A stretch of DNA of 64,000 nucleotides from Patescibacteria group bacterium (GCA_041645165.1 JBAZQN010000009.1:4674-68673), one strand, 5' to 3'; positions 19,169 to 43,255 are shown, counted from the stretch's first letter. Notes: generated from the sequence alone by a model not told the origin. Numbers and translations are program-made.

Positions 19169-20425
19169 ATGGAAAAGGTGCTTCACAAACTATTTTACGG
19201 ATTTTTGGTCGGTGCATTGGTGGCGTCTCTCGCATTATTCCTAAATTATCAATTATCATCCGCGACAGGATATTGGAACGCCTTTGGGAGAATTTATTTT
19301 TATTTTCTTATCGCCTATACTTGGTATATATTTTTACTCCTTTTTGTGGATGATTTCCGGGTTAAGAAATACCCTGCGTATGACGGTGCGCTTATATCCG
19401 TGATCATGCCTTGTTATAATGAAACCCCGGAGCTTCTTGCGCTCTCTCTCCGTTCCATTATGGAGGCGCGGGGCAATATGGAGATAATCATAGTCGACGA
19501 CGGGTCGACAAATGCCACAAAAGATACCCTTGCAAGGCTTGAAGGTTATGCGAACATTCGGGTGCACCGTTTTCCTGCCAATAAAGGGAAACGCCATGCG
19601 CTCCATTACGCGGTAACGCATCTGGTAAAAGGAGAGTTCGTGGCATGCGTCGACAGCGATACGGTAGTGGACCGAGATGCGCTGACGCGCGTGGTGGAGC
19701 CGCTTTTGGATCCCTCGGTCGGCGCATCCACTGGCGATGTGCGGCTATTGAATGAACGCACGAATTGGCTGACGCGCATGGTAGGCGCGTATTACTGGGT
19801 AGGATTGAATATTTATAAACGCGCGCAGTCTGCGCTTGGCATCGTGGTATGCTGCAGCGGATGCCTTTCCGCCTACCGGCAGGAAACACTTTTAAAGATT
19901 ATTGATGAATTTGTCGCGCAGGAATTTTTCAATGAGCCGTGCACCCATTCCGAAGACCGGCACTTGACCAATCTCGTCTTAAAGCAGGGGTACAGGGTGG
20001 TTTACCAGGACCGCGCAGTAAGCTATACCCATACGCCTGATACGCTCAAAGGGTTTCTCAAACAGCAGCAGCGCTGGAAAAGGGGTTACGTGCGCGAATC
20101 TATTTATACGCTCTCATGGGCGTGGCGCACGAGAAAAATTCTCTTCTTCGAAATCATCCTCTGGGATTTGACACTCACCTTTCTCTCGCTCGGGATCCGT
20201 GTCGCGTCGCTTCTTCTCTTCATCACCCAGCCGCTTTTCTTCATCCGGTTCATACTGCCCGGTTGGCTCTACTTCATGAGCGTGCGGTACGTCTTCATGC
20301 TCTTTTATGCGCCCCAAAAAATCCTCGGCCTTATCTACTACACGTTCCTCTATGAATTCGTGCTCTATTGGCAGAATATCATCGCGCTCTTTACCCTGAA
20401 AAATAAGAGCTGGATTACGAGATAA
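19169..20425 (+). CDS. processive family-2 glycosyltransferase (NodC/HAS/cellulose-synthase-like), integral membrane
   Basis: IIVDDGSTN, DSD, ED and the QQQRWKRG (QxxRW) motif; TM helices at both ends. Confidence 0.8.
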   Translation: MEKVLHKLFYGFLVGALVASLALFLNYQLSSATGYWNAFGRIYFYFLIAYTWYIFLLLFVDDFRVKKYPAYDGALISVIMPCYNETPELLALSLRSIMEARGNMEIIIVDDGSTNATKDTLARLEGYANIRVHRFPANKGKRHALHYAVTHLVKGEFVACVDSDTVVDRDALTRVVEPLLDPSVGASTGDVRLLNERTNWLTRMVGAYYWVGLNIYKRAQSALGIVVCCSGCLSAYRQETLLKIIDEFVAQEFFNEPCTHSEDRHLTNLVLKQGYRVVYQDRAVSYTHTPDTLKGFLKQQQRWKRGYVRESIYTLSWAWRTRKILFFEIILWDLTLTFLSLGIRVASLLLFITQPLFFIRFILPGWLYFMSVRYVFMLFYAPQKILGLIYYTFLYEFVLYWQNIIALFTLKNKSWITR

Positions 20426-20577
20426 CCTCTATAATTCTGTTTAAATATGGATTTCATTGAACAAGAGCAATCCTGTTTTTGTGTCATGTAGGTTGCTTTT
20501 TCCCGCAGATCATGTAAAATCGTTGAGAATAAATAATGTTCGTTGACAATTTCCATTCAACAAAGAAAGGCAAAGAC

Positions 20578-22170
20578 ATGAAAAGATTTGCTTTATTACT
20601 GGGGATGTTAATCTCCTTGCAGTCGTATGCAATTCAAAGGTTGCAGGTCGAGGTTAAGGGGGATAGTGTCTGGATGAAGTGTAAAAATTCAGTCCAGACC
20701 TTCTACACTCCCGGCTATCATTCTGCTGATAGCACATTGGGAGTGCTCACCTTCGATTCCGTTGCAGTTCGGCTGCCCGAATTGGGGAGAAATAATTCCT
20801 GTGGGCAGCATGATGGGATTGGATTGTATCATCTCACTTCGGGCTTGGTGCCGGAAAAATTTGGTGATAATTTACAAGTCACCTTTCGTGCATCAGGTAA
20901 GGTGATTTTTTGTCGAGGGGAGATCTTTAGAGAAGAGGCGGAATTGGAATTTCCCAATCTCTTCACGGCGCGGGAATTCCCGATATTCTGGGCTGATTCA
21001 ACGAATTATTCGGTGGATTATTTTCCGCTGAATAATCTAGATACTGTCAGGACAGTCTTTATCTGGACTGATAGTGGGAAGGCACTTTTAGATTCTGCAC
21101 GAATTCTTATTGCGGAGGCAATCCGGGAGGTGGGGAACTACGCGCCTCAATTTTGGCATAAACATCTGCAGAATTGGGGAGGATCGCATTACACATTGAC
21201 TGTAATGTTGGGAACTCCCTACATCGGTTTGGAGCATTTGAATACTCCATTTGCTGGTGTGTCAAAGGAATACTTACCACTGTTAAAACCACTTATAGTT
21301 CACGAAATGTTTCATAGTTTCGTGGGCAAAAGTCTAATGCCCGCCTCATACGTAAATCTTGTGGGATACCATCCTACCGATGCCCTCGGCTTTTATGAAG
21401 GTTTAACGACTTTCATAAGTCAGCGTTATACAATATTTCCCGTCGAGTTCATACAGGATTTGACATATTCTTGGATGAGGACAGATATGTCCAAGGGGCG
21501 AGACTTAATTGAATTAAGTTACGTACCAGGAGAATTAGAATCCCCCTACTGGAATGGAAGGATATTTTGGATCGCCATGATTGGGAAAATAAATATTGAT
21601 GATTGGTTGGAGTGGATGTTCGAGAAAAAATTAATCGATCGTAATATTCCAATTTCAGTCAGCATGGATTCTATATATACATGGCTAAGCGACTATAAAG
21701 CAGGTGTTGGGGATTATGCTCAACGAATTATCCATGGTGAATATTATCATGATGCTGATTCGTTACTTCAGTATCATGGATATCGAAAAACATATCTCCG
21801 TGATTATAGCATTAACTATATAGGCCCTTACTATTGGAGGGACGGGAAGGTTGGAGGATACATTTATGAGGGTATGGATCAGTATCATTTACCCTTAGAC
21901 TATAAATTTAGTTGTATCCTTAGCGGAAGTGATTCGCTATCTTTAGGTCCAAACGGTGACGGTATGAAATTATTGCGACAATTTCCTGATAGTTTATTTT
22001 CTGTCCTAGTTACCTCTTCACGGGGGAGGGAAGTGATAAAGCTTTCTAAAAATTTATATTTCCCTTCTGGGGAATCTTATTACTTTGAGGGCAAGATACA
22101 TTTTGCCCAGGTGCCCCTTGCGAGGCGGGAAGAGACCCTAAAATTCTGGCGGCAGTTGGTCCGCCAGTAA
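20578..22170 (+). CDS. secreted protein with a HExxH motif (putative zincin-like metallopeptidase)
   Basis: Signal peptide MKRFALLLGMLISLQSYA; IVHEMFHSF; start placed at the signal-peptide Met. Confidence 0.5.
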   Translation: MKRFALLLGMLISLQSYAIQRLQVEVKGDSVWMKCKNSVQTFYTPGYHSADSTLGVLTFDSVAVRLPELGRNNSCGQHDGIGLYHLTSGLVPEKFGDNLQVTFRASGKVIFCRGEIFREEAELEFPNLFTAREFPIFWADSTNYSVDYFPLNNLDTVRTVFIWTDSGKALLDSARILIAEAIREVGNYAPQFWHKHLQNWGGSHYTLTVMLGTPYIGLEHLNTPFAGVSKEYLPLLKPLIVHEMFHSFVGKSLMPASYVNLVGYHPTDALGFYEGLTTFISQRYTIFPVEFIQDLTYSWMRTDMSKGRDLIELSYVPGELESPYWNGRIFWIAMIGKINIDDWLEWMFEKKLIDRNIPISVSMDSIYTWLSDYKAGVGDYAQRIIHGEYYHDADSLLQYHGYRKTYLRDYSINYIGPYYWRDGKVGGYIYEGMDQYHLPLDYKFSCILSGSDSLSLGPNGDGMKLLRQFPDSLFSVLVTSSRGREVIKLSKNLYFPSGESYYFEGKIHFAQVPLARREETLKFWRQLVRQ

Positions 22171-22266
22171 AAAGAATTAACGTGAAAGGATTTGGAAAGG
22201 GCCTTAGATTAAAAACCTAAGGCTTTTCAAATTGTCGAAAATGCTGGAGAAGGGTATAATACCATT

Positions 22267-23235
22267 ATGCAAAAGAGTTTTTATCGGAAAAGGCAGCACA
22301 TAGAAACTTCATGGGATGAGTCGGCGCAGTGGTACCACGGGCTGGTGGGCGAGAAGGGGATGGAGCTCCAAAGAGCGGTCGTGTTCCCACAGGCGCTTCG
22401 GTTGCTTCATTTGCAGCCTCACGAGAGGCTGCTTGATGTCGCGTGCGGGCAAGGCGCGTTTTGCCGGGAAGCGGTGCGTTATTGTAGAGAGATCGCAGGT
22501 ATAGATGCATCACCGCAGTTGATTGCATTAGCTCGCAATAATTTTTTATATCGGAATTCTAATCTTACATCCAAGGAAACCTCCCCTCACATCCCCTCCT
22601 TCGTAAGGAGGGGAGGGGGTGGTCTCGTTAATATATCAAAAAAAATTAAATATTATGTAGGCGACGCAAGGAAATTGCCAAAGGAAGTGGTAGGGGAGCG
22701 TTTTGACGCCATTTCATGCATACTTGCCATTTCAAATATTGATCCCATAAAACCCGTATTTGAAGAATGCAAGAAAATTTTAAAACCGTCAGGCCGCTTG
22801 GTGCTGGTGGTTGCGCACCCCTGTTTCCGCATCCCGCGGCAGAGCGGGTGGGGGTGGGACGAGCAGAGGAAGCTGCAGTACCGGAGGGTTGACCGCTATT
22901 TGAGTGAAATGAAAATTCCCATTCAAATGCATCCGGGAGGGCGTTCGCACGAGGTGACGTGGACATTTCATCGTCCGCTCGGGGTGTATATGCGCGCATT
23001 GACAGAAGCAGGTTTTGCTGTTGACGCGATGGAAGAATGGACTACCAACCGCAAAAGCACGCCCGGACCACGTGCGCGCGCAGACATGAATTCTAAACAG
23101 GAAATACCACTATTTTTAACGATGAGAGCAATCAGTGTTAATGTCAAAGCTCAAAGTTTCCCACCTCAGCGGGATCCCGCTTTCCTTGAGAATAAGAAAT
23201 CAAGGAGCGGGACAAATGCCATGGTTCGACAGTAG
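22267..23235 (+). CDS. class I SAM-dependent methyltransferase with an internal low-complexity insertion
   Basis: Motif I LDVACGQGAF; the insertion at 22578-22620 holds a perfect 9-bp-stem palindrome. Confidence 0.75.
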   Translation: MQKSFYRKRQHIETSWDESAQWYHGLVGEKGMELQRAVVFPQALRLLHLQPHERLLDVACGQGAFCREAVRYCREIAGIDASPQLIALARNNFLYRNSNLTSKETSPHIPSFVRRGGGGLVNISKKIKYYVGDARKLPKEVVGERFDAISCILAISNIDPIKPVFEECKKILKPSGRLVLVVAHPCFRIPRQSGWGWDEQRKLQYRRVDRYLSEMKIPIQMHPGGRSHEVTWTFHRPLGVYMRALTEAGFAVDAMEEWTTNRKSTPGPRARADMNSKQEIPLFLTMRAISVNVKAQSFPPQRDPAFLENKKSRSGTNAMVRQ

Positions 23236-23317
23236 TTCGACAGGCTCACTATGACATAGCTCACCATGACAAATAAGATGTGTCATCCTGAGCCGAGTCG
23301 AAGGGTTGTCATTCCTT

Positions 23318-23400
23318 TGAACTTTGTCCCGCACTATGAATTATTTTATCTAAGGTATGCGGGATCCTGCCTGAGCAGTGAGATTTTGAATTTTGAAATT
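23318..23400. repeat. GGATCC-core hairpin element, copy B
   Basis: tttgtcccgcac..gtatgcgggatcctgc..agtgagattttgaattttg aligns with copies A and C. Confidence 0.55.
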
Positions 23401-23408
23401 ATTGTGAT

Positions 23409-23936
23409 ATGACCGAACAAATTACATCAAAAGATTTTTTTAATGATGTGCTTAAATGCCAAGTGTTAGGTTTGTTTGTCCATCCCACCCGCAATACTCC
23501 GGTGGTGTTTATCGGGACTGAAGATGAGCGCATTGTGATACCAATATGGATAGGATTTTTGGAGGCGCAAGCAATCCTCTTTGCTTGGAAGAAAATCACC
23601 CCGCCCCGCCCCTTAACGGTTGACCTTCTGGTATCTCTGATTACCGAAGATTTCAATGCGGCGGTTGAAGAGGTAAAAATCCATACGTTGCAGGAGGGCA
23701 CGTATTACGCTTCTCTTGTCATTGTGTCCCGCGGAGGCGAGCGCAAGGTGAGGGACGCGCGCCCATCGGACGCGATCGCGATTGCGCTCCGCACTCATGC
23801 GTCACTCACCATAAATCCTGCGCTTCAGGATGCGACCGCGCATGAACAGAAGGATGCCAAAGCGCTTCTTGATTTCCTTCGGCTTGAGCATGAAGATCAG
23901 CAGGATACCCTTCAAGAGGAACAAAGTTTATCATAA
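23409..23936 (+). CDS. bifunctional nuclease (BFN/DUF151) family protein
   Basis: The segment VVFIGTEDERIVIPIWIGFLEAQAI..PRPLTVDL.. matches the DUF151 core as I recall it; 175 aa. Confidence 0.65.
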   Translation: MTEQITSKDFFNDVLKCQVLGLFVHPTRNTPVVFIGTEDERIVIPIWIGFLEAQAILFAWKKITPPRPLTVDLLVSLITEDFNAAVEEVKIHTLQEGTYYASLVIVSRGGERKVRDARPSDAIAIALRTHASLTINPALQDATAHEQKDAKALLDFLRLEHEDQQDTLQEEQSLS

Positions 23937-24261
23937 ATAATTGTATAGGAATTTCAATAAGCGTTAAGTCGCATATCATGTGGCGACAGGTGGCTCCTTA
24001 TCCCATCAGTAGAGGCTAGTTTACACTAGCACCATGCCAGTTTACGCAACAAAAGTACGGAGTTTAATTTAGTGCATTATTTTTGAATTTTTGGTTTAAT
24101 GCAACTATGCCAAGTAATACTACATTCAAGAGGGAGGCAGGATCTATGCACTTATTTGTTGGGAATATAATTTAGCGAAAACATATTAGCCCTATAAAAT
24201 TCGCTCAGTAAAAGAAGAAAATATAAATTAAATTCACCCAAAGCATGGATATAATATAAAT

Positions 24262-24826
24262 ATGCGACGCAAAGGTTTTACCTTGATAGAATTATTAGTG
24301 GCGATCTCCACATCGGCCTTTTGGCGACTTTGGCCGTCACCAGCTTGAATAACGCCAGGGTTAAGGCCAGAGACGCGAGGAGATTGGGCGATATTGACAG
24401 CATCAAAAGGCGCTTGATCTAATGTATGATGATCACGGTAATTATGCGATATCATGCACCGGAACCAGAATTGCGACCTGTAATATGCAGCCGTATCTTG
24501 AGTCCGTAAATGTGCTCGATCCCTTAAAATCAACTACAGCGTGTAATGGCGCTAATTCAAGTGACTGCGATTATTCATTCTTATTTCGTTTACCCACTGG
24601 GCAACATTACTTAATTTATTTTCGCTTAGAGGGCGCAACCAGCCTTGGCAATAGCGGGCCGACAAATTGCGCGACTAATGAGGAAATGACTATTTGCGCC
24701 GATGATTTATCCATGGCTGGCTGTAATTTGAAAGATGTGTCTTACAATCCTGAGTGCGCTGTTGTTGATTTTGATAAAGATGGTATAATTAGCAGGGCGT
24801 CAGAACTTGCCGCTTATAGCCAATAA
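24262..24826 (+). pseudogene. disrupted type IV pilin-like gene, first member of the tandem array
   Basis: Intact prepilin N-terminus [13 protein letters not shown], then a 1-nt deletion frameshift near 24300-24316, an in-frame TAA at 24420-24422 and a second frame change; ORF 24422-24826 matches the C-terminal halves of the downstream paralogs. Confidence 0.6.
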
Positions 24827-24894
24827 ATATAATTTTTTAACCAATTTCCTTGAGAGTTTATTTATCGCTAACCCTAATACATAATACAAAAATT

Positions 24895-24970
24895 ATATGT
24901 TAGACATCAACAGATTCGCTCGGGAAAAGAAGCAATTAAAGTTCACCCAAAGTATGGGTATAAAATAAAT
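24895..24970 (+). promoter_or_regulatory. conserved about 76-nt pilin leader/promoter region, copy 1
   Basis: atatgttagacatcaacagattcgctcgggaaaagaagcaattaaagttcacccaaagtatgggtataaaataaat is nearly identical to 26241-26322 and partly conserved at 24200-24261; ends in a tataaaat -10-like box. Confidence 0.55.
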
Positions 24971-25561
24971 ATGCGACGCAAAGGTTTTACATTGATAGAG
25001 TTATTAGTTGTCACTAGCATTATTGGTTTGCTGGCAACTTCAGCCGTGGTAGCGCTAAATAATGCGAGGCAGAAAGCCAGAGATACGGCGCGGTTGAGTA
25101 CTGTAGATAAAATTAGAAAAATAATGTCATATAAACTTAATAATAATGATGTAAATTTTGGTTGCAGCGCTGTTGACACTACTTATCCGGTTTATACCTG
25201 TTCAACTTTTCCAGAATATGTGGCAAATTTAGAAACTTTTAAAGATCCGACTAAGCCAACAGAAGCGTGTAATGGCACAAATACAACTAATTGTAATTAC
25301 GCTTTTAATTATAATCCATACAGAGGAACAATCTATCTTTTATATTTTAGATTAGAAGGCCCAACCATTTTAGGCAATACTGGTGCGATTAATTGCGTTG
25401 CCACGCCAACAGGTATGGCTTGCGGGACTGATATTTCAATTTTTGGTTGTAGCAGTTCGTGCAGTGGGAGCTCAAACTGGAGCTATTGTTCTATATTTGA
25501 TTTTAACGGCAGTGGGTGCGTGGATGCAAACGATAGGTCTTATACTTGGAATAATAGATAA
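24971..25561 (+). CDS. type IV pilin-like protein (prepilin, class III signal), Cys-rich
   Basis: MRRKG|FTLIELLVV with Glu at +5; the N-terminal hydrophobic helix is followed by a Cys-rich globular domain. Confidence 0.8.
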
Positions 25562-25586
25562 TATTCTTTTATAAAACTTAATAAAT

Positions 25587-26198
25587 ATGCGACGCAAAGG
25601 TTTTACATTGATAGAGTTATTAGTTGTCACTGGCATTATTGGTTTGCTGGCAACTTTGGCCGTGGTGGCGCTAAATAATGCGAGGCAGAAAGCCAGGGAT
25701 ACTAAAAGATTAGTTGACATTAATGCTATTAGAAAAGCCATGGCTTTTAAATTTGATAATAATGAAGTTGGTGATTATCAGTGCGACGAGGCGCGCGGTC
25801 CAAGTAATGCTTGGGTTTTTCCAGTTTATACTTGTGATGGGCTTGCCTCTTATCTGCCAAGATTTGCTAATATTAAGGATCCTTTAAATACTGATAATCC
25901 TTGCGATGGAACTAATACAGATGGTTGTAATTATGCCTTTTATAACCCACCATATAGCGGTACTGCTTATTTAATTTATTTTCATTTAGAAGGTAGCACT
26001 AAGTTGGGTAACAGTGGTGCAGCTAATTGTGTGGCGACAGCTAGCAATTATTCATGTGCTGATAATGTCTCTTTTTTCTATTATTGCAGTAATACTTGTC
26101 AAGGTGATCAAAAGTGGCAGACATGTTCTATTTATGATGCTAATGGCAGTGGTTGCATTGACGCCAATGATAGATCATATTTTTGGAATAATAGATAA
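25587..26198 (+). CDS. type IV pilin-like protein, paralog 3
   Basis: Same prepilin N-terminus; about 97% identical to paralog 4; the 25-nt spacer after paralog 2 suggests co-transcription. Confidence 0.8.
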   Translation: MRRKGFTLIELLVVTGIIGLLATLAVVALNNARQKARDTKRLVDINAIRKAMAFKFDNNEVGDYQCDEARGPSNAWVFPVYTCDGLASYLPRFANIKDPLNTDNPCDGTNTDGCNYAFYNPPYSGTAYLIYFHLEGSTKLGNSGAANCVATASNYSCADNVSFFYYCSNTCQGDQKWQTCSIYDANGSGCIDANDRSYFWNNR

Positions 26199-26240
26199 AT
26201 TTTTTTCATAAGACTTAATTTATTATTACTTTTTTAAATC

Positions 26241-26322
26241 ATATGTTAGACATCAACAGATTCGCTCGGGAAAAGAAGCAATTAAAATTAAAGTTCACCC
26301 AAAGCATGGGTATAAAATAAAT
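26241..26322 (+). promoter_or_regulatory. conserved pilin leader/promoter region, copy 2
   Basis: Duplicate of 24895-24970 with a 6-nt insertion. Confidence 0.55.
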
Positions 26323-26934
26323 ATGCGACATAAAGGTTTTACATTGATAGAGTTATTAGTTGTCACTGGCATTATTGGCTTGCTGGCAACTTTGGCCGTG
26401 GTGGCGCTAAATAATGCGAGGCAGAAAGCCAGGGATACTAAAAGATTAGTTGACATTAATGCTATTAGAAAAGCCATGGCTTTTAAATTTGATAATAATG
26501 AAGTTGGTGATTATCAGTGTGACGCGGCGCGCGGTCCCAGTGATATTTGGGTTTATCCAGTTTATACTTGTGATGGGCTTGCCTCTTATCTGCCAAGATT
26601 TGCTAATATTAAGGATCCTTTAAATACTGATAATCCTTGCGATGGAACTAATACAGATGGTTGTAATTACGCCTTTAATTCTCCACCATATAGCGGCACT
26701 GCTTACTTAATTTATTTTCATTTAGAAGGTAGCACTAAGTTGGGTAACAGTGGTGCAGCTAATTGTGTGGCGACAGCTAGCAATTATTCATGTGCTGATA
26801 ATGTTTCTTTTTTCTATTATTGCAGTAATACTTGTCAAGGTGATCAAAAGTGGCAGACATGTTCTATTTATGATGGCGATGGTAGTGGTTGCATTGACGC
26901 CAATGACAGATCATATTTTTGGAATAATAGATAA
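26323..26934 (+). CDS. type IV pilin-like protein, paralog 4
   Basis: MRHKG|FTLIELLVV; near-duplicate of paralog 3, with differences clustered in three short patches. Confidence 0.8.
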   Translation: MRHKGFTLIELLVVTGIIGLLATLAVVALNNARQKARDTKRLVDINAIRKAMAFKFDNNEVGDYQCDAARGPSDIWVYPVYTCDGLASYLPRFANIKDPLNTDNPCDGTNTDGCNYAFNSPPYSGTAYLIYFHLEGSTKLGNSGAANCVATASNYSCADNVSFFYYCSNTCQGDQKWQTCSIYDGDGSGCIDANDRSYFWNNR

Positions 26935-27212
26935 TATTCTTTTATAAAACTTAATTTATTGTAATATAAAATTTATTTCTAACCTCCCCCACCGATCGCC
27001 ACACTCCTGTCCCCAATCTTAGTATGAATCATTCCACCATAGTCTCATTCATCCACTATAATTATCGAACGTCAACTATGTGTGGCATTGGAAGTTGACC
27101 CTATAGAATCACTTAATGCTTCACACATAATGTTTAGATTAACCTTTATTCCCCCATACCATCCGTGGTGTACGTATACCTGGGTGAGTTCTACGTGGTT
27201 GATATATTGGAT

Positions 27213-29015
27213 ATGACAACCAATGAATTGCGGGAAAAATTCCTTGATTTTTTTGCCACCAAAGGGCACGCTATCATCCCTTCTGCATCCCTTATTCCAG
27301 AGCACGATCCCACCGTGCTTTTTACCACCGCGGGCATGCATCCGCTGGTTCCTTATCTCTTAGGGGAATCGCATCCTAAGGGGAAGAGAATAGCTGACGT
27401 GCAAAAATGCATACGCACGACGGATATTGATGAGGTGGGAGACCAATGGCATCTCACTTTTTTCGAAATGCTAGGCAATTGGTCGCTCGGGGACTATTTT
27501 AAGAAAGAAGCGATTGAATGGAGTTGGGAATTTTTAACCGATTCTCGGTGGCTCGGTATTGACTCTGAACGGCTCGCAGTAAGCATATTTGCAGGTGATA
27601 AGGATGCGCCGCGCGATGATGAAGCGGAAGGCTACTGGCTCAATGCCGGCGTGCCCAAGGAGCGCATTTTCACCTATCCCAAAGAGAAGAATTGGTGGGG
27701 GCCTGCGGGCGAGACAGGGCCGTGCGGCCCGGATACGGAAATGTTTTATGACACCAGGCGTCCCCACGATCCACACTATGGCCAAGAATGTCATCCGAAC
27801 TGCGATTGCGGGCGCTGGACTGAAATTTGGAATGACGTATTCATGCAGTTTAATAAGCAGGCTGATGGAGCCTTTGTGCCGCTGAAACAGAAAAACGTGG
27901 ACACTGGTATGGGTCTCGAGCGGGTCGTCGCGGTGCTCACGGGCAAGACGACTGTATTTGAAACGGATGCATTCCAAAGCACCATTGACGCGATCATCGG
28001 GCTTCTCCCGAATTCTGTGGCACAGCCGTCCGCAAATTCAAGCATACGCATTATCGCCGATCATATACGCGCCGCGGTGTTTATCATGGGTGACGATCTC
28101 GGCGTGCTCCCGTCCAATGTGGACCAAGGATATGTGGTGCGGCGCCTGATACGCCGTGCCGTGCGGCATGGCCACACCTTGGGGATAGAGCGGGGATTTA
28201 CCAAAGTCGTCGCGAGCGCGGTCATCGGACATTTTGCGTCCACCTATCCTGAACTTGAGCGGAATGCGGACCGGATACTGAAAGAAATTGATGCGGAAGA
28301 AGTGAATTTCAGAATGACACTAGAGAGGGGGAGTAAGGCATTGGAGAGGATTTTAGCGGGCAAGAACGCCGTAAACGGCAATGACGCGTTCGAGCTCTAT
28401 ACTACCTATGGATTCCCCCTTGAACTCATTAAGGAAATCGCGAAGGAAAAAGGAGTGCCAGTTGATGAAACTGGATATAGCAGCGCATTTGCGGCGCATC
28501 AGGCGCTTTCTCGAAGCGGCGCACAGAAGAAATTTAAAGGAGGACTTGCTGACCATACGGAAAAAATCGTCCGCATGCATACGGCAACCCATCTTCTCCA
28601 TCAGGCGCTGCGCATGGTGCTGGGCAAGGACGTATATCAGAAAGGTTCAAATATTACTGAAGAACGATTACGATTTGATTTTTCCTATCCTCAACGGCTC
28701 ACTCCCGAGGAGCTTGCCCGCACAGAGGGGATAGTGAATGAAAAAATTGCAGAAGATCTGCCTGTACTCTGGGAGGAAATGGCCGTGGAGGAAGCTAAGC
28801 AAAAAGGCGCCATGGGCATATTTACCGAACGATATGGAGAAAAGGTGAAAGTGTATCGCATCGGGGATGCCTCGAAAGGTTCAGGACAGATTTTTTCCCA
28901 AGAAATTTGCGGAGGCCCTCATGTAGACCACACAGCCCTTGTGGGCCATTTTTCCATAGTAAAGGAAGAAGCGGTCAGCGCGGGGGTGCGCCGCATTAAA
29001 GCAGTAGTCACATAA
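27213..29015 (+). CDS. alaS: alanine--tRNA ligase, short form without the C-Ala domain
   Basis: N-terminal LREKFLDFFATKGHAIIPSASLIPEHDPTVLFTTAGM; editing-domain HTATHLLHQAL and CGGPHV; ends about 250 aa before a full-length AlaRS would. Confidence 0.85.
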   Translation: MTTNELREKFLDFFATKGHAIIPSASLIPEHDPTVLFTTAGMHPLVPYLLGESHPKGKRIADVQKCIRTTDIDEVGDQWHLTFFEMLGNWSLGDYFKKEAIEWSWEFLTDSRWLGIDSERLAVSIFAGDKDAPRDDEAEGYWLNAGVPKERIFTYPKEKNWWGPAGETGPCGPDTEMFYDTRRPHDPHYGQECHPNCDCGRWTEIWNDVFMQFNKQADGAFVPLKQKNVDTGMGLERVVAVLTGKTTVFETDAFQSTIDAIIGLLPNSVAQPSANSSIRIIADHIRAAVFIMGDDLGVLPSNVDQGYVVRRLIRRAVRHGHTLGIERGFTKVVASAVIGHFASTYPELERNADRILKEIDAEEVNFRMTLERGSKALERILAGKNAVNGNDAFELYTTYGFPLELIKEIAKEKGVPVDETGYSSAFAAHQALSRSGAQKKFKGGLADHTEKIVRMHTATHLLHQALRMVLGKDVYQKGSNITEERLRFDFSYPQRLTPEELARTEGIVNEKIAEDLPVLWEEMAVEEAKQKGAMGIFTERYGEKVKVYRIGDASKGSGQIFSQEICGGPHVDHTALVGHFSIVKEEAVSAGVRRIKAVVT

Positions 29016-29023
29016 AACACGGT

Positions 29024-30592
29024 ATGCCTCCTGTTTCAATCGGCGATGATGCAGCGGATATGTCTCCGCAGAAGGAATTCGTGCGCGTGTCTGACACTGT
29101 TTCGCTTATTTTTGACGAGCATCACACTCTTTGGGAGCTCGTGAAAGCGGTAAAAAGGGCGCGTGGAATCCGCATAGAGGTAACCGTGCCCGCTCGCCAT
29201 CCTAGTTTCCAGTCGGCGGTGGCGATGGAATATCTCTCAATAGCATTGTTGCGGATCAAAAAAGAAATATGTTTCATCACGCATGATCCTGAATTACAGG
29301 AGCGACTGGCACTGTACGGTTTGAATGCTATCGCTCCTCGCGCCCCCCAAGAACTGACGGAACCTCCTGCCCGCGATCATCTTATACGTTCATTTTTTAA
29401 ACAGCCTATGCGGCCGTTCCAACGCCAAAAAAAGAAATACTTGCGAGGTTGGTGGTTTATTTTATTTATTGCGTTGGCCGTCATATTATTTTTATTTACT
29501 TCGATCACTCCCCGTGCGCATATTACTCTTATTCCGGATGTGAAAGTCATAGAACGCAAAGCAGGCGTGCTCATTAATGCCGAATGGCCCAATCAGCAGA
29601 GGGACGCCGCCCATCTGCGCGGGAAGGTGCTCAAGGAGGAAGGGACATATGCGACGACCACCCCTATCACCGACTTATCAGAAAGCGGAGAAAAAGCAAA
29701 GGGTGAGGCGCGCATAGAAAATCAGACAGGACAAGAGGTGGCGCTCTCTATTGGCACCGAATTATTAAGCGACGACGGCATGGTGTATGTCAGCGAGAGC
29801 GCACTTACGATCCCTGCCGCGTATGTTGCGGAGGATGCCACCATAAAATTTGGCACGCTTTCCGCAACGCTCACCGCCAAGGAACCTGGAGTTAAAGGAA
29901 ATCGCTCAAGCGGCAGGTTTACGATTCCGTCGCTCCCCTCAAACAAGCAGCAGCGCATCTGGGCGGTCATCACGTCTCCCTTTACCGGAGGGTCGGATCG
30001 CATGGGGAAGGTAGTGCGCCAAGAGCACGTGGCTGCACTTGAACCGCTATTATGGGACAGACTGCAGCAGGATTTATTCCAGACGCTAGAATCGCGATTG
30101 GGCAATGAATGGTTTGTTGCCTTTCCGCTTACTACGGCAACCGTGACGAACCTCACCGTGGACCCACCGTTAGGGGTAGAAGCAGATGCTGTTTCTTTAA
30201 ATATGAAAGGGACCATGCAGGCGCTTGCGTTTTCTTCCGCAGACGTACTCCGCGCGTTTGGCGCTAATGTACAAATATGCGGTTCATTTCAGAATGGAAA
30301 ATCAGAGGTCTGCGCGATACGCGTGGATAAAGTGCGAAAACTTGATATGGAGAAAAGGAAAGGGGACGCAGAGTTTGTATTTTCCAAAGTCCAGACGCCT
30401 CCTTTTGATCCTGTTGCGCTTTCTGAAAAAATTACAGGGAAAAGCGTGCAGCAAGCGCGCCTCACCCTGCTCTCTCTCCCGGGAGTAAAAGATGTAAGGA
30501 TTTCATTGCGTTGGAGTTTGAGAAACTATATACCGCGGGATGCGGACCGTATTACCATTGAAGTTGCGCAACAAGAGTTGACACAACCGTGA
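29024..30592 (+). CDS. hypothetical membrane protein (cytoplasmic N-domain, one TM, large extracytoplasmic domain)
   Basis: 522 aa; TM helix WWFILFIALAVILFLF; no family recognised. Confidence 0.45.
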   Translation: MPPVSIGDDAADMSPQKEFVRVSDTVSLIFDEHHTLWELVKAVKRARGIRIEVTVPARHPSFQSAVAMEYLSIALLRIKKEICFITHDPELQERLALYGLNAIAPRAPQELTEPPARDHLIRSFFKQPMRPFQRQKKKYLRGWWFILFIALAVILFLFTSITPRAHITLIPDVKVIERKAGVLINAEWPNQQRDAAHLRGKVLKEEGTYATTTPITDLSESGEKAKGEARIENQTGQEVALSIGTELLSDDGMVYVSESALTIPAAYVAEDATIKFGTLSATLTAKEPGVKGNRSSGRFTIPSLPSNKQQRIWAVITSPFTGGSDRMGKVVRQEHVAALEPLLWDRLQQDLFQTLESRLGNEWFVAFPLTTATVTNLTVDPPLGVEADAVSLNMKGTMQALAFSSADVLRAFGANVQICGSFQNGKSEVCAIRVDKVRKLDMEKRKGDAEFVFSKVQTPPFDPVALSEKITGKSVQQARLTLLSLPGVKDVRISLRWSLRNYIPRDADRITIEVAQQELTQP

Positions 30593-30711
30593 GAGTATTC
30601 TATGATATTGTCACCGTGTTCTTTGGTGTTATTTTTCAAAATTTTCGAATAATTCACCTATTATAACCCAACCTTCTGGGAAATAAGATAAAGAAGGTTG
30701 AGGTTTAATTT

Positions 30712-31008
30712 ATGCAACAAAACCAAACAGGGAGCAGCGGGGCGGTACCATCTGCCGCACCCATAAGCAATGAGGGGAATTTAGGGATCCAAACGAACCG
30801 GAAAGGTTTTATTGACGCCATTGGCGAAGTCGTTGAATTACTGCCGGCGGCCACCTTTAGAGTGAAATTGGAGAACGGCCATGAAATTTTATGCCATCTC
30901 TCCGGGAAAATGCGTATGAACCGCATTCTTCTTTTGCCGGGTGACAGGATAAAAATAGAAATGAGTCCGTATGATCTGAGTAAAGGAAGAATTACTTACA
31001 GGTTTTGA
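30712..31008 (+). CDS. infA: translation initiation factor IF-1 with an N-terminal extension
   Basis: [50 protein letters not shown] matches the IF-1 S1-like fold. Confidence 0.85.
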
Positions 31009-35291: not shown

Positions 35292-36386
35292 GTGATGTCG
35301 GTACCGCAATTACCCAAAGGGAAAATATTATTGGTAACTACTGATTACCCGCCTGCGACAGGAGGGGTAGCGTGGTATTATGAAAATTTAGTGCGCAGAT
35401 TGAACGCTGCGGAGACCCCCTCCGTCTCCCCCATGGCAAGGGAGAGATTCAGAGGAGGTGATGCGAGAGTTGTAGTATTATTGTTGGGTCGATGGACGCT
35501 CACGCCATGGTGGCCGTTATTGATATTTCCCTTATTACTTAAAACTATTAAACTTAAAACTGATGTCTGGTGGGTGGGGCAGGTGCTGCCAGTGGGTACG
35601 GTGGTATGGCTGTTATCACATCTTTGGCCTAAATATTATATTGTTTCAACACATGGCATGGACGTGCTTTTGCCTTTGTATTCCCCAAGGAAGCGATGGC
35701 TCATGAAGCGTATATTAAACCGCGCCACATTGATTACTACAAACAGCGAATGGACGAAGCAAAAAATTATTGAAAATTATTTTTCAAGGAACAAGGAACA
35801 AGGAACAAGAAACAAAATTGAGGTAATATATCCTGAACCGAAACCGAAACGAAAGGCGGCGCGTGAAGAGATTTTAGCGTTGCGGACAAGGCTGGGAATC
35901 CCTCATGATGCGAAAGTCTTACTGACGGTGAGCAGGCTTGTGGCGCGAAAAGGAATTGATTGCGTATTGCGCGCATTGCCGGAGGTATGGCGCCGTTCGC
36001 CCCATCTTCATTATGTGATTGTGGGAGAAGGCGACCAGTTGCCAGTTTATCAGTCCATAGTTTATCAGTTGGCGCCATCCGTAGGGGTGAATGGCCATTT
36101 ATCCATACACTTTGTCGGGAAGGCGAGCGACGAGGAGTTGGCGGTTTATTATTCTTTGGCGGATGAATTTATTTTATTACCGCGAGAATCTCACGGCGAT
36201 GTGGAAGGATTCGGCATTGTATTTTTAGAAGCGGATCAGTACCATGTACCAATTATTGCAACACTTTCTGGAGGCACGGGAGAGGCATTGCAAAAATGCA
36301 AGCAGGTGACTGTTGTTCATGATCCTTTCAATATTCACGAGGTAGCAAATGCAATTATATCAAATCTTAAACCTATTGATGGTTAA
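35292..36386 (+). CDS. family-4 glycosyltransferase
   Basis: GT-B fold with the EGFGIVFLEA motif; 364 aa. Confidence 0.8.
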   Translation: MMSVPQLPKGKILLVTTDYPPATGGVAWYYENLVRRLNAAETPSVSPMARERFRGGDARVVVLLLGRWTLTPWWPLLIFPLLLKTIKLKTDVWWVGQVLPVGTVVWLLSHLWPKYYIVSTHGMDVLLPLYSPRKRWLMKRILNRATLITTNSEWTKQKIIENYFSRNKEQGTRNKIEVIYPEPKPKRKAAREEILALRTRLGIPHDAKVLLTVSRLVARKGIDCVLRALPEVWRRSPHLHYVIVGEGDQLPVYQSIVYQLAPSVGVNGHLSIHFVGKASDEELAVYYSLADEFILLPRESHGDVEGFGIVFLEADQYHVPIIATLSGGTGEALQKCKQVTVVHDPFNIHEVANAIISNLKPIDG

Positions 36387-36392
36387 TGTGCT

Positions 36393-37163
36393 ATGGATAC
36401 AATTTCAATAATAATCCCCGCCTTTAACATGCAGCGTGCGCTTGCGCGCTGTAGTGTGCATGTTGCGGAACAAACTCTAAAACCCTCGGAGGTTATTATT
36501 GTTGACGACGGTTCAATCGATGGAACTGCCATATGGGCAGAAGAAGCAAGGCGTACATTACCCTTTGAGGTCAGCGTACTGACACAAGACCATCGGGGGG
36601 CATCAGCAGCCCGTAATTGTGGATTTAAACAATCTCACGGCACACTGGTCGTATTTCTTGATGCGGATGTGATATTGAAAAAACACGCGTTGGAAAGGTT
36701 GTATATATCGTTAAATCAAAAATCAAAAATCTCCGCCCAAGGCGGATCCGCCTCAGGCGGAAAAAATCAAAATTTAGGAGTAGGTTATGCCTACAGTTCA
36801 TTTAGATGGGGGCGGAAGAAGTTCCCTTCCTACCCTTTTGATGCAGCTCGCTTGCGCCAGATGCCCTATATCCATACTACCTCCCTGATAAAACGCGAAA
36901 CGCTCCCGGAGAATCCATTTGATGAACAATTAAAACGGCTGCAGGATTGGGATCTTTACCTCACGCTTCTTGAACGGGGTACCATAGGTGCCTATGTGCC
37001 GGAAATTCTATTTACCGTGGAAACAAAAGGCACCATGAGCCGTTGGTTGCCGTCCATCATGTACCAGATACCTTTTACCAAGTTTGGCATGAATATTTCG
37101 AGACTTAATAAGTACCGCGAAGCAGAACAAATTATTAAAACGAAACACAAGCTTAATAATTGA
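36393..37163 (+). CDS. family-2 glycosyltransferase carrying an in-frame 30-nt palindromic insertion
   Basis: IIVDDGSIDGT...FLDADV; the segment encoding SAQGGSASGG coincides with the repeat at 36732-36761. Confidence 0.75.
   Translation: MDTISIIIPAFNMQRALARCSVHVAEQTLKPSEVIIVDDGSIDGTAIWAEEARRTLPFEVSVLTQDHRGASAARNCGFKQSHGTLVVFLDADVILKKHALERLYISLNQKSKISAQGGSASGGKNQNLGVGYAYSSFRWGRKKFPSYPFDAARLRQMPYIHTTSLIKRETLPENPFDEQLKRLQDWDLYLTLLERGTIGAYVPEILFTVETKGTMSRWLPSIMYQIPFTKFGMNISRLNKYREAEQIIKTKHKLNN
36732..36761. repeat. 30-nt GGATCC-centred double-hairpin element, copy 1, inside the GT2 CDS and in-frame
   Basis: tccgcccaaggcggatccgcctcaggcgga flanked by aaaaatc / aaaaaatc; second copy at 47579-47608. 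Confidence 0.55.
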
Positions 37164-37211
37164 GCACGTGGCGAGATGCTGAATGTTAATACTTGATGAA
37201 ATTGTGTAATA

Positions 37212-38222
37212 ATGTATTCTATAGGTATGGGTAATCTAAAAAAGATGAAAAGAATTGCACACAGAACCGAGAAGGTTCTGTTATTCGTTCGTGAATTGTC
37301 TAGTATTTCAAAAAAGGATATTGCTCTTGCAGGTGGGAAGGGGGCAAGTTTGGGTGATTTGATGCGGGCGGGGCTGCCGGTACCCGCTGGATTCGTAGTG
37401 ACAGCAGCGGCATTTGATCGGTTTCTGGAAGAAAATGAATTGCTTGAAGATATCGATGCGCAATTAAGCAGAGTGAATTATAAAGATACGAATTCAATTG
37501 ATCGTGCATCAAATGTGATTCGTGCGCTTATCCTTGAGGCTCCGTTTCCTAAAGACCTGCGGCAGGAAGTTATAAAATTTTTTGGCACACTTAATACTTC
37601 CTTCGTGGCAGTGCGCAGCAGCGCGACTGCGGAGGATTCAAAGACGGCAAGCTGGGCAGGGGAGTTGGAGACTTATTTAAATACTATTGCAAAGACATTA
37701 TTTGCGAATATCCAAAAATGCTGGGCGTCGCTTTTTAGCCCACGAGCGATTTTTTACCGTCATGAGAAGCGATTGCACCGCGTGAAAGTGTCAGTTGCGG
37801 TTGTCGTGCAGGCGATGGTCGAGTCAGAGGTTGCCGGAATCGCATTTACGGTGCATCCGGTGACGAAAGACAAAAATCAAATGATTATAGAAGCAGGGTG
37901 GGGATTGGGGGAAGCGGTGGTGTCCGGCCAGATTACCCCTGATTCGTATGTGCTGCATAAAAAAGATTATTCAGTAATAGATCTCCATACTGCCAGACAA
38001 GAAAAAAAACTTGTACGCAATCAAAAAGGAAATGGCGACTGTTGGGTTTCTGTACCTAAAAAACTACGGACAAAGCAAAAGCTTACGACTGCACAAATAA
38101 AAACATTAGCGGAGCTCTGTATGCGCGTCGAGCGCCATGAGCGATTTCCTTGCGACATTGAGTGGGCATTAGTCCGTGGCAAGTTTTACCTGCTCCAGAG
38201 CAGACCTATCACAACCTTATGA
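37212..38222 (+). CDS. stand-alone PEP-utilising-enzyme N-terminal ATP-grasp domain protein (PPDK_N / PpsA N-domain only)
   Basis: ALAGGKGASLGDLMRAGLPVPAGFVV..; 336 aa and ends where the PpsA/PPDK mobile His domain would begin. Confidence 0.7.
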   Translation: MYSIGMGNLKKMKRIAHRTEKVLLFVRELSSISKKDIALAGGKGASLGDLMRAGLPVPAGFVVTAAAFDRFLEENELLEDIDAQLSRVNYKDTNSIDRASNVIRALILEAPFPKDLRQEVIKFFGTLNTSFVAVRSSATAEDSKTASWAGELETYLNTIAKTLFANIQKCWASLFSPRAIFYRHEKRLHRVKVSVAVVVQAMVESEVAGIAFTVHPVTKDKNQMIIEAGWGLGEAVVSGQITPDSYVLHKKDYSVIDLHTARQEKKLVRNQKGNGDCWVSVPKKLRTKQKLTTAQIKTLAELCMRVERHERFPCDIEWALVRGKFYLLQSRPITTL

Positions 38223-38224
38223 CT

Positions 38225-38530
38225 ATGCCCAGTTATACAACTTCCCATATGTTCTTTTATGTCTATGTACTACAAAGTATAAAGGATAATAATAAATACA
38301 TAGGGTATACGAATAACCTGAAAAGGAGACTGGAAGAACATAGGAAAGGCTTAAATTTTGCAACAAAGTTTAGACTACCATTTAAACTCATTTACTTCGA
38401 AGGATGTCTTAATATAAACGACGCCAAACGCCGTGAACATTATCTGAAAGGAACTCAAGGCCGGAGATTCCTAGGTCTGCGACTACAGGAATACACTCGC
38501 AGTAAACCAGCGTTTGGCGTGGGAAGTTGA
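38225..38530 (+). CDS. GIY-YIG nuclease-domain protein
   Basis: FYVYVLQS..KYIGYTNNLKRRLEEHRKG matches GIY-YIG; the start is uncertain (ATG at 38225 or 38249; the ORF-track GTG at 38162 overlaps the upstream gene). Confidence 0.65.
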   Translation: MPSYTTSHMFFYVYVLQSIKDNNKYIGYTNNLKRRLEEHRKGLNFATKFRLPFKLIYFEGCLNINDAKRREHYLKGTQGRRFLGLRLQEYTRSKPAFGVGS

Positions 38531-39419
38531 TATACTGGGTATGGATTTTTCAGTAATTATTGTAAGCTGGAATTCCAAAGAGTTTCTTGAGCGTTGTGTG
38601 AAGTCGGTGCAAAGGTGCGCCCAAGGCCTGTCATGTAAAATTATCGTGGTCGATAATGCGTCTACCGATGGGAGCGCGGATTTTGTGCGCGATACCTTCC
38701 CTATGGTGATTCTCGTACGCCTTCCTGCAAATACGGGCTTTGCGCACGCGTGCAATGTAGGCATTACACATGCGCAAGGGCGTTATATTTGTTTTTTAAA
38801 TCCTGATACGGAGTTACTAAATAGCGCACTTCAGCATTTAGTATCTTTTATGGATCAGCACCCAATAGCCGGAATCGCAGGGGGGATGCTGCAAAATGTT
38901 GATGGGAGCAGGCAGGTATCAGTCAGATCATTTCCCGCACCCCTCGTCGCGCTGGGGTTGGCGCTTAAAATTCCCCATATACCGGTGCTGCGTGCATTGT
39001 TCCGCACCTATTTTCAGGACGCCTTCAATTATGAAGTAAGCCAGCAGGTAGATCAGGTTATGGGAGCTTTTTTCATCGTGAGGAATTCCTTCTTAACCCA
39101 GGTGGGCGGATTTGATGAGCGTTTTTTTCTCTGGTTCGACGAGGTTGACCTTATGCGGCATGCACATGAGTTGGGGTGGCAGGTGTGGTATTATCCTCGC
39201 GCAAAAGCAATCCATTGGGGGGCGCAAAGCTTTTCCAAAGTTTCCTCCTATGAGAACCAGAAGCAATTTCTCATCAGCATGAAACGTTATATTGGCAAGT
39301 GGCATGGAAAGCACGCCGCGTTGCCGCTCATTATTTCGACTCCTCTTGTGTTATTTGTATATCGAATTTTTTTATTAATTTTATTTAAAATAAACAAGGC
39401 AAACGCCACAAATATATGA
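38514..39419 (+). CDS. family-2 glycosyltransferase
   Basis: IIVVDNASTDGS..FLNPDTE. Confidence 0.8.
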   Translation: MAWEVDILGMDFSVIIVSWNSKEFLERCVKSVQRCAQGLSCKIIVVDNASTDGSADFVRDTFPMVILVRLPANTGFAHACNVGITHAQGRYICFLNPDTELLNSALQHLVSFMDQHPIAGIAGGMLQNVDGSRQVSVRSFPAPLVALGLALKIPHIPVLRALFRTYFQDAFNYEVSQQVDQVMGAFFIVRNSFLTQVGGFDERFFLWFDEVDLMRHAHELGWQVWYYPRAKAIHWGAQSFSKVSSYENQKQFLISMKRYIGKWHGKHAALPLIISTPLVLFVYRIFLLILFKINKANATNI

Positions 39420-40885: not shown

Positions 40886-40900
40886 TGTTCAGCTTTTGGT

Positions 40901-41113
40901 TTAGCTGATTTCCCAACGTACCATCATGCTGTGTATTAACACGTCCCACAGGCAAAACACACCTGCGAACACCAACCCAATGTTTTCAAGCACGGGATAA
41001 CTAAATATATCTCTCCCGGCGTAAAAACACGCTCCTGCAGATATGATGGCGATAAAAATGTGAATGGTATTACCCAGAACTCTTTTTTCGCTCCCGCGTG
41101 ACATTCGTATCAC
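40901..41113 (-). CDS. small 2-TM membrane protein
   Basis: 70-aa minus-strand ORF with two hydrophobic helices, sitting between GT genes; may be spurious. Confidence 0.3.
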   Translation of the reverse strand: MIRMSRGSEKRVLGNTIHIFIAIISAGACFYAGRDIFSYPVLENIGLVFAGVFCLWDVLIHSMMVRWEIS

Positions 41114-41204
41114 CTCCTTTAATCGCTAGAGTTAACAGTTTTAGATTTTAAAATAGGTTTAACGTTGTAAAATAGCAGAAGAAGAAGAAGTCAAGAGGGG
41201 AGGT

Positions 41205-41372
41205 AATGTCCCAATTTCCAATCTCCAATATCAAATTAATGTCCAATGCCCAACGAATGATTAAATGCCTGAATGGCCAGTTTGATGTTTTATGAATTGG
41301 GTTTTCAGCCGAAGGCTGGTCCGCCTCTGGCGTGATATTGGAAATTGGTCATTGGGGTTTGGGATTTTTCAC
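41205..41372. repeat. CCAAT/ATTGG long inverted repeat upstream of the GT2 gene
   Basis: Left arm gtcccaatttccaatctccaatatcaaattaatgtccaatgcccaa (41209-41254); right arm ttggtcattggggtttgggattt (41345-41367). Confidence 0.45.
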
Positions 41373-41379
41373 CTTAAAT

Positions 41380-42357: not shown

Positions 42358-42370
42358 TAGTTGAGCAAAT

Positions 42371-43189: not shown

Positions 43190-43245
43190 TGACGCGGATT
43201 CGTATATTGCGAAGTTTGGGATTTGGAATTTGTAATTTGGAATTT
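43156..43245. repeat. CCAAT/ATTGG long inverted repeat
   Basis: aaatcccaatgaccaattcccaatgaccaatt (43156-43187) faces tttgggatttggaatttgtaatttggaattt (43215-43245). Confidence 0.55.
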
Positions 43246-43255
43246 ATCATGTGAT

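Follow-up and report, generated by a model that had tools for sequence, protein, structure and literature searches.

The Prepilin Gene Array

We analyzed a 64,000-nt stretch of a Patescibacteria metagenome-assembled genome (MAG; GCA_041645165.1, JBAZQN010000009.1:4674-68673), hereafter the window, in which four consecutive prepilin-like genes, three intact and one broken, occupy positions 24262-26934 of the plus strand:

24262-24829, plus strand: copy 1, a pilin pseudogene of a distinct paralogue type, delimited by three-frame translation
24971-25561, plus strand: copy 2, an intact open reading frame (ORF) for a prepilin of 196 aa with 10 Cys and a P0006-type globular domain
25587-26198, plus strand: copy 3, an intact ORF for a prepilin of 203 aa with 10 Cys
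26323-26934, plus strand: copy 4, an intact ORF for a prepilin of 203 aa with 10 Cys

Copies 2-4 are NCBI entries MFA4873113-115 of a Patescibacteria MAG. The leader M-R-R/H-K-G followed by F-T-L-I-E-L-L-V is found in all four copies (MRHKG in copy 4, MRRKG and then FTLIELLVV in the others), giving each the basic segment ending in Gly, the hydrophobic residue at +1, and the Glu at +5 of a class III signal. The Pfam family N_methyl scores 29.5-31.9 bits (cut-off 21.2; copy 2 31.9, copy 3 29.7) and NCBIfam TIGR02532 scores 29.6-31.4 bits (cut-off 16.3), in agreement with an earlier interpretation made from the nucleotides alone (the sequence-only reading), which had proposed four prepilins with class III signals and Cys-rich domains. 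Besides these two, no Pfam or NCBIfam model exceeds its cut-off on the intact copies, and a six-frame motif scan of the 64 kb found no further prepilin leader outside the array.

Assembly error does not explain the array. ERZ27249422, an independent ENA assembly, divides the region into two contigs, of which the first is identical to window positions 20422-25959 and ends within copy 3, and the second runs from 26070, in the 3' part of copy 3, through the spacer and copy 4 into the downstream genes; a genuine repeat of near-identical units would be expected to break in this way. Positions 23338-24924 are matched without a difference by a Logan contig (run SRR8449827), both deletions of copy 1 included, and neither lesion resembles an assembler error, with the proviso that the assemblies compared (MAG, ENA, and Logan) may have reads in common. 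A scan of a metagenome collection returned only three distant loci and did not meet the array a second time. An alignment search with the globular domain against a genome collection returned no relatives, so that neither this MAG nor the genome carrying the related locus L001 (see below) is part of it, and an exact look-up of copy 4 (P0001) gave no record.

The AT-richness remarked on in the sequence-only reading is pronounced, with a GC content of 35-39% in the array and ~47% in its surroundings. At third codon positions (GC3) the pilin genes have 0.27-0.30, more than 4 SD below the 0.507 +/- 0.052 (minimum 0.408) of 46 other genes. The gap falls mainly at synonymous sites, and ribosomal protein genes have a normal GC3 (0.47-0.53); neither amino-acid content nor expression level explains the low values of the pilins.

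Synteny with Related Genomes

Loci L001 and L002, from the related MAGs GCA_040960375.1 and GCA_040960315.1, hold a single pilin gene between flanks that are 84-90% identical to those of the array in the window. The gene order is the same: methyltransferase, BFN nuclease, pilin, AlaRS, a 526-aa protein, IF-1, and S13. Window positions 26311-30998 are collinear with 1652-6333 of L001 at 84% identity, making copy 4 the positional orthologue, on the 3' side, of the single gene of the relatives, and the sequences 5' of copy 1 and 3' of copy 4 are the orthologous borders of the array. Since the relatives have one pilin gene between the same neighbours, the array is an expansion in this lineage. Synonymous divergence (dS) is 0.10 between copies 3 and 4, and 0.44 between either of them and the L001 gene.

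The single pilin gene of L001 (1664-2275) is likewise low in GC3 (0.289, in a locus of GC 0.485). The low GC of the pilins is therefore old, predating the split of the lineages, and not the mark of a recent import.

Elsewhere, two adjacent members of the pilin family (209 and 201 aa) lie by a Band_7 gene in another lineage (L013, 1498-2716; L014, 72-1290). Tandem pairs thus recur, and the family is found in at least four genomic contexts.

The Inactivated First Copy

Three-frame translation shows that the reading frame of copy 1 changes twice. The first lesion removes a single nt of an ATC codon at ~24310-24311 and the second a single nt of the A-run at 24405-24408; when the two bases are put back, a continuous 189-codon pilin frame with 8 Cys is restored. 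A 7-nt gap that a DNA alignment placed in copy 1 is an alignment artefact, the true lesion there being the single deletion in the A-run. The sequence-only reading had listed the frame changes, which stand, together with an internal stop as a separate defect, which does not: the TAA at 24420-24422 is a mere out-of-frame consequence of the deletions. The ENA and Logan contigs are identical to copy 1, both frameshifts thus being seen in three assemblies, and the description of copy 1 as decaying is upheld.

Its description as a silent cassette is not. Copy 1 has its closest relative in P0009, an intact gene of 197 aa in an unrelated locus of another metagenome (L003), with 78-79% nucleotide identity and a ratio of nonsynonymous to synonymous divergence (dN/dS) of 0.146; past the first 99 nt, the identity of copy 1 to copies 3 and 4 is only 47-54%. 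Given its full 5' end, this divergence, and intact orthologues at a dN/dS of 0.15, copy 1 is a distinct paralogue that lies behind the ancestral upstream region and was inactivated recently.

A second split member of the family was seen in a groundwater metagenome (ERZ909571; L020, 2273-2915), where a P0137/P0139-type pilin beside a Band_7 gene is cut into ORFs of 46 and 162 aa. It is either another frameshifted pilin gene or an assembly error.

Upstream Repeats and Expression Signals

About 85 nt 5' of the ATG are repeated ahead of copies 2 and 4, and a more diverged form precedes copy 1 (24199-24261), much as the sequence-only reading had it. The noncoding features of the array are:

24073-24261, plus strand: the ancestral upstream region, which now precedes copy 1 and aligns with the pilin upstream region of L001 and L002
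24890-24970, plus strand: the upstream repeat of copy 2, with the hairpin ACCCA-AAGTA-TGGGT and a TATAAA box
25562-25586, plus strand: the 25-nt spacer between the stop of copy 2 and the start of copy 3
26236-26322, plus strand: the upstream repeat of copy 4, which differs from that of copy 2 by a 6-nt AATTAA indel and little more
26932-26955, plus strand: the 3' flank of copy 4, TAATATTCTTTTATAAAACTTAAT, which recurs unchanged after copy 2 at 25559-25582

Positions 24073-24335 are 71% identical to the sequence upstream of the single pilin gene in L001 and L002, and the same 24 nt follow the stop in copy 2 and in copy 4. No upstream repeat precedes copy 3; with the 25-nt spacer, this makes its co-transcription with copy 2 likely.

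In copies 2 and 4 the TATAAA box ends 6 nt 5' of the ATG. A Shine-Dalgarno-like motif lies within 20 nt of only 2 of 40 plus-strand gene starts across the window; such motifs being rare in this genome, their absence ahead of the pilin genes is normal here. A scan for promoters and terminators gave fewer promoter-like sites than in shuffled sequences and none ahead of the pilin genes, and an Rfam scan of the array returned no credible family (best, AfaR, 22.9 bits against 100).

Two smaller observations concern the same regions. A hairpin, ACCCA-AAG(T/C)A-TGGGT, lies at 24946-24960 and 26298-26312, at a distance of 11-25 nt from the ATG that follows it in copies 2 and 4. This hairpin is weaker ahead of copy 1 and missing upstream of the L001 gene, being part of a stretch of ~28 nt that has no counterpart in L001. 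Several gene starts lie 6-14 nt past a TATAAT-like box (for example 22267, 32864, 62590, 24971, and 26323), a spacing suggestive, for this genome, of mRNAs that are leaderless or have very short leaders.

Differences between Copies 3 and 4

Of the 612 nt of copies 3 and 4, 23 differ (96.2% identity, not the ~97% first given), as do 9 of the 203 residues, namely 3, 68, 74, 75, 78, 119, 120, 185, and 186. Fourteen of the differences sit in the nine changed codons; the other nine are synonymous and spread along the gene. The sequence-only reading had overlooked these synonymous differences as well as the R3H change, and had correctly picked out the variable patches:

26525-26555 (copy 3: 25789-25819), plus strand: patch 1, residues 68, 74, 75, and 78, in the alpha-beta loop
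26677-26682 (copy 3: 25941-25946), plus strand: patch 2, residues 119-120, YN versus NS
26876-26878 (copy 3: 26140-26142), plus strand: patch 3, residues 185-186, AN versus GD, at positions 2-3 of an EF-hand-like loop

The clustering is statistically supported, both by six same-codon pairs of differences (p = 1.7e-4) and by the distribution of the changed codons (p ~0.005-0.01). As had been supposed of exposed loops, the changed residues fall in or at the edge of loops predicted in an AlphaFold2 (AF2) model (the alpha-beta loop, the loop after strand 117-118, and the C-terminal loop), and in the family alignment the patch columns are the variable, indel-rich ones. The states of the patches recur in relatives: AN in P0002, GD in P0003, and NS in P0121 and P0005. 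Diversifying selection, which had been offered as one explanation, does not describe the gene as a whole: dN/dS is 0.23 for copies 3 and 4 and 0.15-0.31 across all pairs, so that overall selection on the pilin genes is purifying.

The ENA contig k141_181725 (L019) of assembly ERZ27249422 is 99.9% identical to the window across 6865 nt. All 7 mismatches lie in nt 348-384 of copy 4 (L019 601-637, window 26670-26706), where the contig has the states of copy 3. This patch is either a conversion variant in the population or an artefact of bubble merging in a de Bruijn assembler.

Segmental Structure of the Pilin Genes

Comparison with the single gene of L001 shows that relationships change along the genes (site blocks are given in codon-alignment columns, segment identities in copy 3 coordinates). 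Among informative sites in columns 1-135, copies 2 and 3 agree with each other at 24, copy 2 agrees with L001 at 1, and copy 3 agrees with L001 at 2; the corresponding counts are 0, 20, and 4 in columns 136-225, and 15, 13, and 144 from column 226 to the end. The 223 sites form 62 runs, a number not equalled or undercut in any of 100,000 permutations.

Identities follow the same three segments. Over nt 1-99 the genes are 96-97% identical inside the array and 73-75% identical to L001. Over nt 100-189, copy 2 is 86-89% identical to L001 and L009, and copies 3 and 4 are 71% identical to L001 and 82% to L020. From nt 190 to the end, copies 3 and 4 are 90-91% identical to both L001 and L020. The globular part of copy 3 is 91% identical, at the nucleotide level, to the single gene of L001; that of copy 2 has nucleotide identities of 59% with copy 3 and 78% with L008/P0006. 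Of the four combinations possible between middle and head segment types, three exist (B1C1, B2C1, and B1C2), which indicates recombination among family members. The genes are mosaics, a pattern that points to recombination among paralogues; gene conversion or recombination, which the sequence-only reading had raised from the patches of copies 3 and 4, is thereby placed on stronger evidence.

Protein Family, Predicted Fold, and a Putative Calcium Loop

The match of the array proteins to known families is restricted to the N-terminal methylation and cleavage motif, and ordinary Patescibacteria pilins of ~150 aa align with their first ~70% only. Clustering at 90% identity leaves about 11 groups of full-length relatives. 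In a search of 1.84 billion proteins, the globular part is matched by only 18 representatives (at 50% identity), of which two, P0129 and P0135, are low-complexity repeat proteins and were dropped as spurious. The globular part belongs to a small family of pilins of ~200 aa that is confined to Patescibacteria.

The eight Cys at 66, 83, 106, 114, 148, 157, 167, and 180 are fully or almost fully conserved. Of 18 aligned sequences, 5 have both Cys171 and Cys190; in the other 13 Cys190 is missing, as is Cys171 except in P0008, a co-occurrence that fits a fifth disulfide.

The AF2 model of copy 4 (predicted local distance difference test, 92.6; predicted template modelling score, 0.86) has a helix at 8-57, strands at 76-79, 130-134, 146-150, and 155-158, and helices at 177-183 and 193-201. 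Its predicted shape is the helix-plus-sheet "lollipop" of a type IV pilin, and a Foldseek search of the PDB places PAK pilin and TcpA on top. The family profile aligns with only the alpha1 region of solved pilins and GspG; among the structures compared was PDB 8pfb, Streptococcus sanguinis PilE1.

In the model, the globular domain has an extra C-terminal module of ~46 residues that ends in an EF-hand-like helix-loop-helix. The loops, located with the pattern D-x-[DN]-x-[DNSG]-G-x-[IVL]-x-x-x-[DE], are:

25499-25534, plus strand: EF-hand/dockerin-like loop of copy 2, 12 residues
26136-26171, plus strand: EF-hand/dockerin-like loop of copy 3, DANGSGCIDAND, a match to the pattern
26872-26907, plus strand: EF-hand/dockerin-like loop of copy 4, DGDGSGCIDAND, between helices 177-183 and 193-201

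These are the only three matches among the 128,000 six-frame residues of the window, and all are in the intact pilins. The form D-x-[DN]-x-[DNS]-G-x-[IV]-x-x-x-D occurs at the same place in 18 of 21 family members, and the loop pattern occurs in none of ~88 ordinary 150-aa pilins of the Candidate Phyla Radiation (CPR). In copy 4 the loop covers residues 184-195, and the second helix is predicted to begin at loop position 10. From the conserved residue pattern, we reason that the C-terminal loop probably binds calcium.

Origin and Function of the Array

We consider it probable that the array is a tandem expansion, specific to this lineage, of an "orphan" type IV pilin locus of a CPR genome, accompanied by recombination within the pilin family. 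Of the elements of this account, the gene structure, the N-terminal family membership, the synteny, the mosaicism, the pseudogene, and the clustered differences are shown by the data. The four genes would derive from one ancestral pilin gene, flanked by the BFN-nuclease gene and alaS, through duplication of a unit consisting of the gene and ~85 nt upstream of it, and through recombination with other pilins of the family. The conserved 5' end, which encodes the leader and the alpha1-N helix, may have aided this recombination, homogenizing the first 99 nt within the array and leaving the downstream parts as mosaics. Three copies have stayed intact under purifying selection, and one was lost recently through two 1-base deletions. 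As to processing, assembly, calcium binding, disulfide pairing, and biological role, we infer that the products are cleaved after Gly5 by a prepilin peptidase encoded elsewhere and polymerize by way of the N-terminal helix to form a type IV pilus, in which they would be alternative or co-assembled subunits with different exposed loops. As its role, the sequence-only reading had proposed surface or antigenic variation, host attachment, or DNA uptake. The globular domain would be held by 4-5 disulfides, with 66-83, 106-114, 148-157, 167-180, and 171-190 as the expected Cys pairs, and probably also by calcium in the C-terminal EF-hand-like helix-loop-helix.

Several results weigh against this account. 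The Pfam/NCBIfam scan of window ORFs of at least 120 aa found no PilB, PilC, PilD, PilM, or PilT and no prepilin peptidase; the closest approach to such machinery in the window is two MreB matches with a sub-threshold PilM_2 hit. In fold, the globular domain is only weakly like solved pilins (best E 0.044, template modelling scores 0.3-0.4). EF-hand_6 and EF-hand_1 reach only ~12 bits (E 0.13-0.19, cut-offs 25) on the C-terminal tails of copies 2 and 4, and Dockerin_1 reaches 10.8 bits on the pilin tails; three tails concatenated give 32.6 bits, an artificial sum. Finally, duplication alone does not account for the deviant GC3, which points to foreign origin or repeated import of alleles. With regard to the machinery, two reports (PMC11623550, PMC11665869) describe type IV pili as conserved in Patescibacteria and as essential or host-binding in cultivated Saccharibacteria, and orphan pilin genes as remote from the machinery in cultivated Patescibacteria. 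By analogy with this literature, pilus machinery is likely present in this organism.

Programmed variation of the Neisseria pilE/pilS kind, with one expressed copy and the others, copy 1 included, serving as conversion donors, would account for the segmental mosaics, the clustered multi-nucleotide changes in the loop codons of copies 3 and 4, and the return of the AN/GD and NS states in other family members, and the ENA contig whose sole 7 mismatches place a copy 3 patch in copy 4 would be a variant caught in the act. The two systems are alike in having several pilin copies, segmental exchange, and variable patches in exposed parts. However, pilS-type donors have neither a promoter nor the 5' part of the coding region, and conversion in Neisseria requires a G-quadruplex (G4) element upstream of pilE (PMC2188579, PMC3547852), whereas every copy here has a start codon, a leader, and a full alpha1, and copies 1, 2, and 4 have upstream regions of their own. 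G4 patterns occur in the window only at 55720 and 59992, with none in 23900-27200, and the array has no slippage tracts. Moreover, the paralogues are far more diverged than in Neisseria: copies 1 and 2 share just 47-63% identity with copies 3 and 4 past nt 99, too little for efficient conversion, and the window holds no donors for the patch variants. The dS of copies 3 and 4 is evenly spread, which argues that conversion is not frequent, and the ENA patch can be explained by bubble merging. On balance such a system seems to us quite improbable. An invertible switch of the Moraxella type, which calls for flanking inverted repeats and a recombinase, was considered and rejected: inverted matches at the array are only AT-rich low-complexity sequence or palindromes inside the repeats, with no inversion repeats, and the Pfam/NCBIfam scan of window ORFs found no recombinase gene near the array.

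Horizontal acquisition from lower-GC Patescibacteria, perhaps repeated via natural transformation so that foreign alleles accrete at a recombination hot spot, shares much with the expansion that we favour, being compatible with it and differing mostly in emphasis. It draws on the gap in GC3 between the pilins and the other genes, ordinary ribosomal protein genes included, on the natural competence of Patescibacteria (PMC11665869), on relatives that sit in loci of 36-43% GC at unrelated positions (by Band_7, DUF5674/HD, and SerRS), and on the closest kin of copies 1 and 2, which are found in other loci of other genomes rather than in copies 3 and 4. As the leading explanation it is nevertheless unlikely, because the single gene of L001 shares the GC3 anomaly and because copies 3 and 4 and the upstream repeats were clearly duplicated locally. 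Less probable than any of these is that the genes encode pseudopilins of a type II secretion-like system or of a competence (Com) pseudopilus, as the database name "type II secretion system protein" would have it. The top NCBIfam equivalog is indeed GspG, followed more weakly by ComGC, ComGD, and ComGE; some 150-aa relatives match Pfam T2SSG (PF08334); and the C-terminal part of GspG-type pseudopilins is calcium-dependent. Yet the 28-36 bits of GspG (TIGR01710) fall far short of its cut-off of 88.85, and the match covers residues 4-60 only, the shared N-terminal helix, which makes the database name a generic one, and PF08334 gives no match to the array proteins at E <= 0.01. At ~200 aa, with a large disulfide-rich head, the array proteins are far bigger than ComGC, and to our knowledge no outer-membrane secretin pathway is known in Patescibacteria. 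The likeness to GspG/PulG is one of N-terminal similarity and annotation, and the array loop, a canonical 12-residue EF-hand/dockerin pattern in an added module, is not the GspG site.

The array proteins resemble type IVa pilins such as Pseudomonas aeruginosa PilA and Neisseria PilE in the basic leader ending in Gly, Phe at +1, Glu at +5, the hydrophobic alpha1-N, and, in the predicted model of copy 4, the long N-terminal helix on a beta-sheet; they differ in a globular part that has no sequence match to solved pilins and in having 8-10 Cys instead of the usual two. Streptococcus sanguinis, which has no outer membrane, carries adjacent, near-identical, full-length major pilin genes, pilE1 and pilE2, whose products are co-assembled. 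The globular domains are unrelated, but on this model it is plausible that copies 3 and 4 form a mixed filament. Closer in taxonomy, at the level of the phylum-level group, are PilA1/PilA2 and the orphan PilJ/PilK of the saccharibacterium TM7x, for which PMC11623550 describes pilin genes away from the assembly loci, several pilin paralogues per genome, and pili linked to host binding and motility. The array family is limited to a few uncultivated lineages, and the searched passages of that paper make no mention of a tandem four-gene array, a Cys-rich head, or a calcium-type loop. The Pam pilus of CPR bacteria is an unrelated, donor-strand-exchange system (PMC13278184).

A bolder extension, to which we give only a small chance, is that pilins of a small, mobile, low-GC family, imported perhaps by the pilus-dependent competence system itself, were duplicated and shuffled in segments through their conserved 5' ends to diversify the loops of a calcium-stabilized, disulfide-rich pilus head that a host or phage recognizes, in an organism that lives as an episymbiont. 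If true, the locus could contribute to shifts in host range or to escape from pilus-specific phages. In cultivated Patescibacteria, type IV pili belong to the small number of surface structures with a demonstrated part in host contact and motility, and almost nothing is known of subunit variation in the uncultivated majority of the group. The locus offers a clean natural comparison, with one gene in a sister lineage and four here, shuffled segments, and a recent loss, and it defines a small pilin family with an unusual head of 4-5 predicted disulfides and an EF-hand-like loop. We regard it as a useful example and as a target for structural and expression work, one that leaves the view of pilin gene families unchanged.

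Other Features of the Window

Directly downstream of the array, window positions 27165-30592 encode a short AlaRS (616 aa, ending with the tRNA_SAD domain) followed directly by a conserved 522-aa protein. The latter has no match in Pfam or NCBIfam, and the pair is kept in L001 and L002.

Farther along lie two MreB paralogues, MreC, and a PBP2-type transpeptidase (47634-48641, 54295-55335, 55339-56124, and 56820-58751), which together make up a full rod-shape module within this Patescibacteria fragment. Between the array and this module, 35292-45205 holds a glycosyltransferase/Wzy-like/DUF4012 cluster, in which the ORF at 37212-38222 encodes the N-terminal ATP-binding domain of pyruvate phosphate dikinase alone.

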